Assembly: GCA_017614525.1 (NCBI GenBank)
Contig: JAGABS010000077.1
Location: 1 to 43,776 of the forward strand
Reading direction: 5' to 3'
DNA length: 43,776 nucleotides
DNA from: Alphaproteobacteria bacterium
GTDB lineage: Bacteria > Pseudomonadota > Alphaproteobacteria > UBA3830
The position numbers and the translations under genes are program-made. Below the pieces are notes generated by a model. That model worked only from the letters and a program-made list of their open reading frames with translations, made no database searches and was not told the origin of the DNA. Positions 27,235-28,328 of the stretch are shown one piece after another; the first letter of the stretch is position 1; every line of letters begins with the position of its first letter.

Positions 27235-27756
27235 ATGATATTGACCTATCAAAAGATTTTAGAAAGTGTGAACAACGGAAAGATTTGTATTTCTCCTTTC
27301 GATGAGGGGATGTTGAATAGCAACAGCTACGATTATCGCATCGATCGGAAATTGCTCGAAATCGATGACGTGCCCGTGGACCCGAAGAGACAGACCTCAT
27401 ATCATGAGATAGAATTTAACGATGACGGTTACGTGTTGTCGCCGAATAAGACCTATCTTGCGAACACTTATGAGGAAATCGGCAGCAAGGAATTCGTCCC
27501 GTTGTTGATAGGAAAGTCTTCCCTGGGAAGGTTGGGGCTTTTTTTGCAAATTACCGCGGACCTCGGAAATTTAGGGGCGGCGCACCGCTGGACTTTGGAG
27601 TTGAAAGCAGTTCAGCCCGTGAGGATTTACCCGATGATGAGAATAGGTCAGGTGTCTTTCTGGGAAACTTCCGGAGACAGGGAAATGCTTTATGACGGGA
27701 AATATGACAAGTTCTCGTCTGCGAAGTCCAGTGAAATTTATAAAGAGTTCATTTAG
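27235..27756 (+). CDS. dcd: dCTP deaminase family protein, copy 1 (catalytic Glu present, conserved ID-Asp replaced by Asn)
   Basis: GKSSLGRLGLFLQITADLGNLGAAHRWTLELKAVQPVRIYP aligns without gaps to E. coli Dcd [33 protein letters not shown]. The Glu codon GAG is at 27598-27600. Confidence 0.85.
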   Translation: MILTYQKILESVNNGKICISPFDEGMLNSNSYDYRIDRKLLEIDDVPVDPKRQTSYHEIEFNDDGYVLSPNKTYLANTYEEIGSKEFVPLLIGKSSLGRLGLFLQITADLGNLGAAHRWTLELKAVQPVRIYPMMRIGQVSFWETSGDREMLYDGKYDKFSSAKSSEIYKEFI

Positions 27757-27806
27757 GAACATGAAGAGAATTTATTCAGGAATAAAAATAGTTTAGGAGT
27801 AGCAAA

Positions 27807-28328
27807 ATGATTTTAACCGGCAGCGAAATTTTGAAGAATTACGAAGAAAAGAAGATAATAATTGATCCGTTCAACAGAGATCAGTTGAACCCGAATTCGT
27901 ATAACTTCACCTTGGGTAACAAGCTCTTGGTCTATAACGATTACGTGTTGGACGTGAAAAAGGAAAATTCCGCCAGGGAGCTGGAGATTCCGGAGGAAGG
28001 TTTGACCTTAGCACCGGGGACGGTCTACCTGGGACACACGAAAGAGGTGATTGGCAGTGAATATTTCGTTCCCGTCATCAGGGGGCGTTCATCCATAGGG
28101 CGTTTGGGGCTGTTCATCAATATTACGGCGGATTTGATTGATATCGGAGCGATTGGTCAGGTGACTTTGCAGCTGAATGCCGTTCAGCCTGTAACCATAT
28201 ATCCTGGAATGCAGATCGGTCAGGTGACCTTCTGGGCTGTCTCTGGAGATGTAAAGAAGTACGAAGGGCGTTATCAAAATTCCGTGGGACCGGTAGCGTC
28301 GAGGATGTACGAAGATTTTCGGAAATAA
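27807..28328 (+). CDS. dCTP deaminase/dUTPase-superfamily paralog, copy 2 (catalytic Glu replaced by Gln)
   Basis: GRSSIGRLGLFINITADLIDIGAIGQVTLQLNAVQPVTIYP. CAG (Gln) at 28170-28172 occupies the position where Dcd has its catalytic Glu. The C-terminal arm RYQNSVGPVASRMYED is Dcd-like. Confidence 0.8.
   Translation: MILTGSEILKNYEEKKIIIDPFNRDQLNPNSYNFTLGNKLLVYNDYVLDVKKENSARELEIPEEGLTLAPGTVYLGHTKEVIGSEYFVPVIRGRSSIGRLGLFINITADLIDIGAIGQVTLQLNAVQPVTIYPGMQIGQVTFWAVSGDVKKYEGRYQNSVGPVASRMYEDFRK

Follow-up and report, generated by a model that had tools for sequence, protein, structure and literature searches.

Reciprocal active-site substitutions in adjacent dCTP-deaminase paralogues: a candidate heteromeric, site-partitioned dCTP deaminase/dUTPase

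Why should a bacterium keep two neighbouring copies of a dCTP deaminase gene, each of which has replaced a different catalytic residue of its superfamily? The question is raised by positions 1 to 43,776 of contig JAGABS010000077.1 (assembly GCA_017614525.1; Alphaproteobacteria, UBA3830), a stretch that was analysed throughout and is here called the window. Two Dcd paralogues follow one another on its forward strand; the upstream one is termed A and the downstream one B, and positions are given in window numbering. On balance, A and B probably assemble, as two kinds of subunit, into a single heteromeric member of the dCTP deaminase/dUTPase superfamily, with the catalytic sites partitioned between them. 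The physical association of A and B, their activities and their substrate are what we infer from the observations below. The two genes and their catalytic elements are as follows.

27235..27756, + strand: gene A, A-type Dcd paralogue, 173 aa (open reading frame; PF22769, 1.3e-31)
27511..27531, + strand: motif II of A, GKSSLGR, residues 93-99, intact in the window
27556..27600, + strand: motif-III hairpin of A, ADLGNLGAAHRWTLE, with Asn112, His117, Trp119 and Glu122
27568-27570, + strand: Asn112 of A (AAT), at the position of the superfamily Asp
27598-27600, + strand: Glu122 of A (GAG), the catalytic Glu
27649..27651, + strand: motif-IV Gln139 of A (CAG); Gln in 78 of 78 paired A-types
27807..28328, + strand: gene B, B-type Dcd paralogue, 173 aa (open reading frame; PF22769, 1.2e-38)
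28083..28103, + strand: motif II of B, GRSSIGR, residues 93-99, strictly conserved in B-types
28128..28172, + strand: motif-III hairpin of B, ADLIDIGAIGQVTLQ, with Asp112 retained and Gln122 in place of the deaminase Glu
28140-28142, + strand: Asp112 of B (GAT), the superfamily Asp retained
28170-28172, + strand: Gln122 of B (CAG), at the position of the deaminase Glu
28221..28223, + strand: motif-IV Gln139 of B (CAG); Gln in 116 of 116 B-types

A sequence-only reading of this DNA had described the genes as tandem paralogues of 173 codons each, 50 nt apart, with reciprocal substitutions at two conserved positions. Its spacing, coordinates, codons and motif strings were exact. Its estimate of about 45% identity was close (47% by BLASTP, E = 8e-55), but the alignment it gave as free of gaps over about 150 residues contains one 1-residue gap over 172.

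The first step is to establish that the substituted positions are the catalytic ones. A and B both belong to the DCD family PF22769, with scores of 110 and 133 bits against a cut-off of 27 and matches over profile positions 1-152 of 153. Their AlphaFold2 models reach predicted local distance difference test (pLDDT) values of 85 for A and 93 for B. The best Foldseek matches in the PDB are bifunctional dCTP deaminase-dUTPases (DCD-DUTs), namely 4xjc, 4a6a/2qxx and 2hxd/3gf0, with template-modelling (TM) scores of 0.87 for A and 0.92 for B (the latter to 4xjc) and E values down to 1e-13 and 4e-15, respectively. In a MAFFT alignment of 229 sequences (112 A-type, 116 B-type and E. coli Dcd), Asn112 of A and Asp112 of B fall on E. 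coli D128, and Glu122 of A and Gln122 of B fall on E. coli E138. HMMER aligns the Gln of B with the Glu that is catalytic in the enzymes of B. halodurans, M. jannaschii and M. tuberculosis, and hmmalign and the AlphaFold2/Foldseek comparison agree, so the residue equivalence that had been read from a hand alignment is established. One of the matched structures, 3gf0, is itself an engineered E145Q mutant.

Both window proteins also carry the motif-II Ser and Arg (E. coli S111 and R115), the motif-IV Gln, and a Leu at the position of E. coli R126. Measured against the residue set of a bifunctional enzyme (Ser, Asp and Gln plus Glu, and no Arg at R126), neither polypeptide is complete, while the pair is jointly complete. 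The further claim that A lacks the canonical C-terminal arm needs to be softened. The arm of A can be aligned and retains Y153, G155, K156, Y157 and S166, but it is more variable than that of B (column entropy 2.01 versus 1.35) and is modelled at lower confidence.

The substitutions are not peculiar to the window. Homologue searches gave two separate orthogroups, each with its own conserved state. In the E138 column, Glu is present in 111 of 112 A-types, whereas B-types have Gln (113) or Met (3) and never Glu. In the D128 column, A-types have Asn (81), His (18) or Gln (12), never Asp, and B-types have Asp in all 116 cases. The E138 column is the only one that is conserved in both families with a differing residue. 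Taken pair by pair, the pattern is the same in 78 of 78: A has N, H or Q together with E, and B has D together with Q (73) or M (5). His117 and Trp119 of the motif-III hairpin are invariant among A-types, and the residue after the Asp position, the aromatic W131 in E. coli, is Ala or Ser in A and in many B-types. Motif II is held very differently by the two families. At the columns of E. coli R110, S111, S112 and R115, B-types have R in 114 of 116 and S, S and R in 116 of 116 each (RSSR in 74 and KSSR in 4 of the 78 pairs), while A-types are relaxed (K64/R35/N12, S54/T51/A5, S107/E5 and R102/K7).

Since each copy lacks one residue deemed essential in the canonical enzymes, either could be imagined to be a functionless, decaying duplicate. 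This explanation is refuted. The ratio of nonsynonymous to synonymous substitution rates (dN/dS), whether taken between the window and its close relatives or within that group of relatives, lies at 0.007-0.038 in A and 0.007-0.055 in B; the substituted states are conserved across phyla down to about 50% identity; and both genes are intact in all complete loci. Both copies are under purifying selection and neither is decaying. The dN/dS values and the family-wide conservation rule out A or B as a pseudogene, and with this goes the pseudogene-like evolution of the downstream copy that the sequence-only reading had named as fatal to its proposal.

The two genes also travel together. A scan of one genome per species identified 275 loci encoding an A-type, of which 80 were retrieved and inspected. 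In 76 of the 80, the next gene after A on the same strand is B, and the order is always this one; the remaining four are contig ends or a problem of open reading frame (ORF) calling. The junction is a 4-nt overlap in 39 of the 76, and nearly all the others lie within about 30 nt. The hosts span at least seven phyla (Alphaproteobacteria, Chlamydiota, Verrucomicrobiota, Saccharibacteria and other members of the candidate phyla radiation (CPR), Bacillota, Bacteroidota and Actinomycetota). They include Holosporaceae and other alphaproteobacterial metagenome-assembled genomes (MAGs), which is the lineage of the window, as well as Parachlamydiales, Verrucomicrobia, Saccharibacteria, other CPR, Clostridia, Bacilli, Paenibacillus, Muribaculaceae, a gammaproteobacterial MAG, Streptomyces and Asanoa. 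The distance matrices of A and B are correlated (r = 0.85, reached by none of 2000 Mantel permutations), and A and B of the same locus are 39-53% identical. These features fit a single old duplication that has been inherited and transferred as a unit. No natural two-domain A-B fusion was found among the best 150 representatives; P0244, considered as such a fusion, joins A to a C-terminal piece of B and is likely to be an artefact.

What was duplicated can be judged from the single-gene relatives. In a neighbour-joining (NJ) tree, A and B are each monophyletic, are sisters of one another and are nested among single-gene relatives (bootstraps 59, 33 and 35 of 100). At the position of E. coli R126, the 85 single-gene representatives nearest to the pair carry an aromatic residue, and they also have the Asp, the Glu and the motif-IV Gln. 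Because these relatives bear the bifunctional signature, descent is of the bifunctional type, and the ancestor of A and B was most likely a DCD-DUT. Dcd relatives on viral contigs provide a natural control: 79 of 79 are single genes with the full residue set (RSSR in motif II; the Asp, with an aromatic residue or Arg ahead of it; and, further on, the Glu and the Gln), and the reciprocal substitutions are found solely in the paired state. A phage origin of the pair is ruled out, as all the viral-contig relatives are single complete Dcds.

The chemistry of the superfamily suggests what each hairpin could do. According to PMC3360063, which cites Helt 2008 and Johansson 2005, dUTP hydrolysis in the family requires a Ser in motif II, an Asp in motif III and a Gln in motif IV (Ser102, Asp119 and Gln148 in M. 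tuberculosis). The same paper states that in monofunctional dCTP deaminases an Arg (E. coli R126) forms a salt bridge with this Asp and blocks hydrolysis, and that bifunctional enzymes have an aromatic residue at the Arg position. In dUTPases, replacement of the Asp by Asn leaves substrate binding intact but lowers catalytic efficiency to about 0.0002 of wild type (PMC4827122, PMC5519681). In B, S95, D112 and Q139 are present, the blocking Arg is replaced by Leu and the deaminase Glu alone is missing. The archaeal Dcd-fold dUTPases 8y1w (T. pacificus, with dUMP) and 9ln0 ('P45') have RSS, D and Q with Met in place of the Glu, and B appears to resemble them in its working residues, although not as a member of their family. 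Since A has the Glu but not the Asp, and B has the Asp but not the Glu, a site on the A hairpin should deaminate and not hydrolyse, and a site on the B hairpin should hydrolyse dUTP, or at least bind a uracil or thymine nucleotide, with no deamination.

In the proposed enzyme, each site would be formed by two adjacent subunits. One would provide the motif-III hairpin, where base and sugar are bound and where the Asp and, in deaminases, the Glu are located; its neighbour would provide motifs I, II and IV, with the phosphate-binding Ser/Arg and the Gln. As the Asp and the Glu lie on the same hairpin, A and B cannot complement each other within a single site. Sharing of a site by neighbours does mean that a subunit may lose its own motifs II and IV if its neighbour supplies them. 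A would then act as donor of a motif-III hairpin and B as donor of the strictly conserved motifs II and IV needed by the A site. Sites combining motif III of A with motifs II and IV of B (Glu122, with Asn for Asp) would convert dCTP to dUTP without hydrolysis. Sites combining motif III of B with motifs II and IV of either B or A (Asp112, with Gln for Glu and no blocking Arg) would not deaminate, but would bind a uracil or thymine nucleotide and most likely convert dUTP to dUMP and pyrophosphate (PPi). The net reaction would be dCTP to dUMP, the precursor used by thymidylate synthase, in two steps at two kinds of site within one complex. Such a complex would be a mixed ring, and AB2 would be the only trimer to keep both activities where motifs II and IV of A are dead, though this stoichiometry is a guess.

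Dead motifs of this kind are found in A-types of several lineages. Motif II has been destroyed in a number of divergent A-types (GCRPVAQLG, GIREVANTG, ATKSVGSMG, ASRSVASLG and others), some of which have also lost the motif-IV Gln. All of them retain the (H/N/Q)…WTLE hairpin, and wherever the contig was fetched, an intact B-type (GRSS…D…Q…Q) shares the operon. In one Holosporaceae subclade, motif II of A reads GKTELGK (KTEK at the conserved positions). Because motifs II and IV are lost while the Glu hairpin is kept and an intact B lies in the operon, dependence on B is indicated: judged by their motifs, divergent A-types must borrow motifs II and IV from B, since a homotrimer of them would have no complete site. 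The sequence-only reading had offered either subfunctionalisation of a DCD-DUT ancestor or an obligate heterotrimer with composite sites, and the evidence favours a combination of the two. The ancestral part is borne out by the nearest single-gene relatives and the best structural matches, all of bifunctional type. The composite part stands as far as divergent A-types need B, and falls for any complementation of Asp by Glu within one site.

An independent parallel for this division is suggested by analogy with two triple-Dcd single-chain proteins, P0241 and P0245, the top match of an exhaustive HMMER search. Their domain 1 has motif III only (with both Asp and Glu), domain 3 has motifs II and IV only, and domain 2 is degenerate, so that each chain appears to be a covalent pseudo-trimer with one composite site. 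P0241 is encoded at 1189-2838 of locus L164 in a bacterial MAG, near znuABC, fur and cmk; P0393, like P0241 and P0245, is a chain of three tandem Dcd domains that retains a single composite active site.

These A-types and triple-domain proteins also bear on another arrangement, in which one operon encodes two separate homotrimers, A3 being a dCTP deaminase that releases dUTP and B3 a Dcd-fold dUTPase that removes it. Adjacency would then serve only to balance expression and prevent a build-up of dUTP. The arrangement would suit the window, where A retains a usable motif II and the motif-IV Gln, as it does in most of the 78 pairs (RSSR, KSSR or KTSR), and where B bears all of the residues for hydrolysis. 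It is also in keeping with the solved archaeal Dcd-fold dUTPases with Met for Glu, whose homotrimeric action is assumed, and with the homo-oligomeric state of all characterised members of the superfamily known to us. However, A-types with destroyed motifs II and IV have no homotrimer site and yet have kept the Glu hairpin and the pairing with B, and in the Holosporaceae subclade the changes of S to E and R to K fall at residues that deamination requires. Adjacency in a fixed order, seen in seven or more phyla and accompanied by 4-nt overlaps, is what subunits of a single complex typically show, and the triple-domain proteins suggest that mixed rings form in this clade. For these reasons two independent homotrimers seem unlikely.

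A second alternative keeps the mixed ring but gives B a different task. B may be a pseudoenzyme that donates motifs II and IV to A while its own Glu-less pocket only binds dTTP or dUTP, making the complex a monofunctional dCTP deaminase under allosteric feedback. dTTP is a cooperative regulator of dCTP deaminases and DCD-DUTs, and thymine binding shifts the loop beside motif III; a Gln can hydrogen-bond the uracil or thymine base but cannot be a general base; and motif II of B is the most strictly conserved element of the pair. Mere binding would, however, have no need of Asp112 and Gln139, both kept in 116 of 116 B-types, or of the missing blocking Arg, and the Met variant of B agrees with the solved dUTPases. 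The dUTP product would, moreover, still need a separate dUTPase. We think a purely regulatory B improbable, and somewhat more so than the two homotrimers.

Several points weigh against the heteromeric, site-partitioned enzyme itself. Motifs II and IV of the window A are intact (GKSSLGR and IGQV), so that a self-sufficient A3 deaminase and B3 dUTPase could exist here. Gln at the Glu position lacks a direct biochemical precedent for hydrolysis, the archaeal precedent being Met. Which subunit contributes which motif is known from trimeric dUTPases and is extended to Dcd by homology. The 1:1 dosage suggested by translational coupling does not match a ring of three members, and bootstrap support for the A/B sister grouping is weak (35-59 of 100 in the NJ tree). 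Finally, in the taxa with accessory operons, the substrate may be something other than plain dCTP.

These accessory operons differ between taxa. In Chlamydiae and Verrucomicrobia, the pair is accompanied by a TRZ/ATZ-type amidohydrolase gene and a dNMP-kinase-like gene. At six loci from Parachlamydiales and Verrucomicrobia (L031, L033, L036, L037, L039 and L063; about 2100-5100), a 5'-deoxyadenosine-deaminase-like TRZ/ATZ amidohydrolase and/or a major facilitator superfamily (MFS) transporter, plus a 187-aa dNMP-kinase-like protein, are encoded directly 5' of A-B, with frequent overlaps. The partners in Firmicutes and Muribaculaceae are an NrtR-like regulator, a kinase, a radical S-adenosylmethionine (SAM) protein and a histidine phosphatase. 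Four loci from Bacilli, Muribaculaceae and Saccharibacteria MAGs (L034, L048, L052 and L061; about 900-7000) have, in this order, genes for a dNMP-kinase-like protein, a radical-SAM protein of ~400 aa, A and B. In L034, L048 and L052 the operon is preceded by an NrtR-like Nudix regulator, and in L034 and L061 a histidine phosphatase lies downstream. The gene content of this operon hints at viperin-type processing of a cytosine nucleotide. The dNMP-kinase-like neighbours match phrog_139 (1.9e-18), and the radical-SAM neighbour has a weak match to the PADLOC model for 'viperins associated with kinases' (pVip; 7.6e-10); searches of PDB sequences with the kinase and radical-SAM neighbours were uninformative. 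A and B have no match among the PADLOC defence-system models, and on this ground their membership of a defence system was rejected.

Operons of both Paenibacillus and Saccharibacteria contain a methyltransferase gene and a gene for a protein like the catalytic domain of alanyl-tRNA synthetase (AlaRS), while ATP-grasp and metallophosphoesterase partners are present in Paenibacillus and not in Saccharibacteria. The SAM methyltransferase flanks A-B in L047, L050 and L076 (Paenibacillus) and in L070, L078 and L079 (Saccharibacteria). The AlaRS-like protein, of 340-360 aa, is encoded beside A-B in L047, L050, L070, L078 and L079, and in Paenibacillus the metallophosphoesterase and an ATP-grasp ligase are present as well. 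These surroundings look like a small biosynthetic cluster. In Actinobacteria the operon partners are glycosyltransferases. A B-type Dcd domain with D and Q is also found fused to PPDK_N and a phosphoenolpyruvate (PEP)-utilizer swivel domain, a phosphohistidine dikinase module (L082 388-2853 and L083 291-2756; proteins P0267, P0262 and P0257). At a distance of 4 kb downstream there is an A-type gene whose motifs II and IV are dead, beside HAD, ENPP and ATP-grasp genes. The operon of locus L081 (2905-8522), which is preceded by transposase genes, encodes in order an APH-like kinase, an A-type whose motif II is destroyed, a P-loop kinase of 365 aa, a B-type and a methyltransferase. These are followed by a gene of no assigned function, a distant third Dcd-like protein whose C-terminal tail is hydrophobic, and a protein of the dCMP/cytidine-deaminase fold.

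Such company raises a third alternative, that the A/B module acts on another cytosine nucleotide (a modified dCTP, CTP or ddhCTP) in a modification, natural-product or antiviral pathway. Outside Holosporaceae, the operons with dNMP-kinase-like (phrog_139) and viperin-like radical-SAM genes point this way, as do the other partners (histidine, HAD and ENPP phosphatases, methyltransferases, ATP-grasp, AlaRS-like proteins and glycosyltransferases), the fusions of B-type domains to the PPDK-type dikinase module, and the change of the E. coli W131 aromatic to Ala or Ser in A and many B-types. In the window and in other Holosporaceae, however, the pair stands alone amid housekeeping genes (lpx genes, lnt, clpX and lon). 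The accessory partners are missing from the window, where kinase, radical-SAM, amidohydrolase, methyltransferase and AlaX-like partner genes were all looked for and none was found. The pair is retained in MAGs of Holosporaceae, Saccharibacteria and Parachlamydiales, which are commonly regarded as host-dependent lineages with small genomes, and its closest relatives are ordinary DCD-DUTs. As a general account of A and B, a different substrate is the most doubtful of these three alternatives.

The heteromeric, site-partitioned reading and the accessory operons can also be brought together in a more ambitious statement. Within the trimeric dUTPase/Dcd superfamily, the pair would be the first natural heteromer. 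Its ring would be asymmetric, in the simplest case AB2, with deamination and PPi release divided between two chemically different interface sites and with A as an obligate, B-dependent donor of motif III only. In many bacteria this module would have been recruited, with kinases, viperin-like radical-SAM proteins, methyltransferases and dikinase fusions, to non-canonical cytosine nucleotides. We put this combination forward tentatively, as something that may well fail in one part or another.

The window itself gives the pair a plain setting. The elements around the two genes are as follows.

27182..27209, + strand: promoter-like site 5' of A (TAGAAA, 16 nt, TATATT; consensus scan 9/12, weak)
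27224..27227, + strand: Shine-Dalgarno-like GAGG, 7 nt 5' of the A start codon (read from the sequence)
27757..27806, + strand: A-B spacer of 50 nt, with AGGAG at 27795-27799, 7 nt 5' of the B start codon

The promoter-like site is the sole such site between A and the divergent gene upstream, and a sequence scan of the 50-nt spacer found no terminator-like site. Within gene A, a terminator-like hairpin and T-run (GKSSLGRLGLFLQ; 27515-27546, + strand) lies over the codons of motif II; as this region is coding and conserved, the hairpin is probably a chance match. The surrounding genes are lpxD, lpxA, an LpxI-LpxB fusion, a family 2 glycosyltransferase (GT2), lnt, clpX and lon, and lnt comes after the pair in 19 related loci. 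These housekeeping surroundings fit a core role in deoxypyrimidine metabolism. A conventional dut was looked for in the window and not found, and neither dut nor thyA was found near the pair across 83 loci. The LpxI-LpxB fusion is a single 653-aa ORF (23596-25557, + strand) that joins the N- and C-terminal domains of LpxI to LpxB, the lipid-A disaccharide synthase, and it therefore places two successive steps of lipid A synthesis in a single polypeptide. A 132-aa ORF on the opposite strand (26711-27109, - strand), divergent from gene A and overlapping the start of the GT2 gene by 8 nt, has a hydrophobic N-terminus (MRFGNCLLIFSVFLASC…), is lipoprotein-like and has no Pfam match.

Current annotation tends to obscure the pair. 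In the dCTP-deaminase equivalog model TIGR02274 (cut-off 92.8 bits), A scores 86.8 and falls below the threshold, and B, which lacks the deaminase Glu, passes with 110.1. A-type and B-type are not told apart by any curated NCBIfam or Pfam model. In public records of the orthologues (P0031, P0035, P0121, P0139 and others), the Glu-less B goes by 'dCTP deaminase' at NCBI, where many Glu-bearing A copies are entered as 'hypothetical protein'; at JGI both are 'dCTP deaminase'. The catalytic residues suggest the opposite of the NCBI naming. A Glu-less B labelled as a dCTP deaminase, in many cases alongside a 'hypothetical' A, is present in at least 275 species-level genomes.

The fold, the chemistry and the pathway are known; the quaternary and genetic organisation is, as far as we could find, undescribed, and it is widespread. 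Literature searches on heteromeric or paired Dcd, the E145Q variant and dcd of Holospora found nothing relevant, in keeping with the sequence-only reading, which knew of no described split or heteromeric Dcd pair. To our knowledge, the dCTP deaminases, DCD-DUTs and trimeric dUTPases characterised so far are all either homo-oligomers or fused pseudo-oligomers. If the heteromeric enzyme is real, it would add a new quaternary solution to a textbook step in the making of thymidylate and offer a clean natural case of duplication with complementary loss at an inter-subunit active site. It would also bear on dUMP supply and dUTP control in host-dependent bacteria such as Holosporaceae, Parachlamydiales and Saccharibacteria. 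The accessory operons and dikinase fusions, in turn, suggest an unexplored nucleotide-modifying chemistry built on the A/B module.

How the pair stands to the known enzymes can be seen by comparing it with each in turn. It shares with the bifunctional DCD-DUTs the fold (TM 0.87-0.92), motifs II, III and IV, the lack of a blocking Arg, the motif-IV Gln and, by prediction, the net conversion of dCTP to dUMP. However, a DCD-DUT is the product of one gene, with Asp and Glu in every site, whereas the pair consists of two always-adjacent paralogues, has no site with both residues and often includes an A without motifs II and IV of its own. Known DCD-DUTs are homotrimers or homohexamers. A is like the E. 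coli Dcd (1xs1) in its fold, its catalytic Glu and its Ser/Arg motif II, and its site is likewise predicted to deaminate without hydrolysis. The means of silencing hydrolysis differ: a salt bridge between Arg126 and Asp128 in E. coli Dcd, loss of the Asp (to N, H or Q) with Leu at the Arg position in A-types. The motif-IV Gln, missing in E. coli Dcd, is present in A. B, for its part, is like the archaeal dUTPases (8y1w, 9ln0 and S. tokodaii 2zdc) in motif II, the Asp, the motif-IV Gln and a residue other than Glu at the deaminase position. These archaeal enzymes apparently stand alone and have about 155 aa and a shorter C-terminus, whereas B is always with A, has 173 aa and a full Dcd C-terminal arm, and scores 29.6 bits against a cut-off of 130 with the archaeal dUTPase model NF002598, which A does not match.

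Duplication of Dcd-like units is also seen elsewhere. In the long two-domain DCD (PF06559 plus DCD; A. tumefaciens 2r9q), which occurs in Alphaproteobacteria, two Dcd-like jelly-roll units work together, but identity of the pair with it is ruled out: A and B match DCD_N (PF06559) only marginally (E about 0.03), the TM score to 2r9q is only 0.66, and the two-domain DCD belongs to a different lineage and is a fusion. Equivalence to Dcd1 and Dcd2 of Dictyostelium is likewise ruled out, those being independently acquired and each functional alone. The monomeric dUTPases of herpesviruses and the single-chain pseudo-heterotrimeric dUTPases, such as that of Drosophila virilis, share with the pair a duplication in the dUTPase fold followed by division of labour. 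In the herpesvirus enzyme, the single site takes motif III from domain 1 and the other three motifs (I, II and IV) from domain 2, and the copies not used decay; the triple-Dcd proteins P0241 and P0245 seem to follow the same logic. Those dUTPases are, however, fusions within one polypeptide that carry out one reaction, while A and B are separate genes whose hairpins are both strongly conserved and bear different catalytic residues. Conservation of both hairpins with differing residues implies two kinds of working site.

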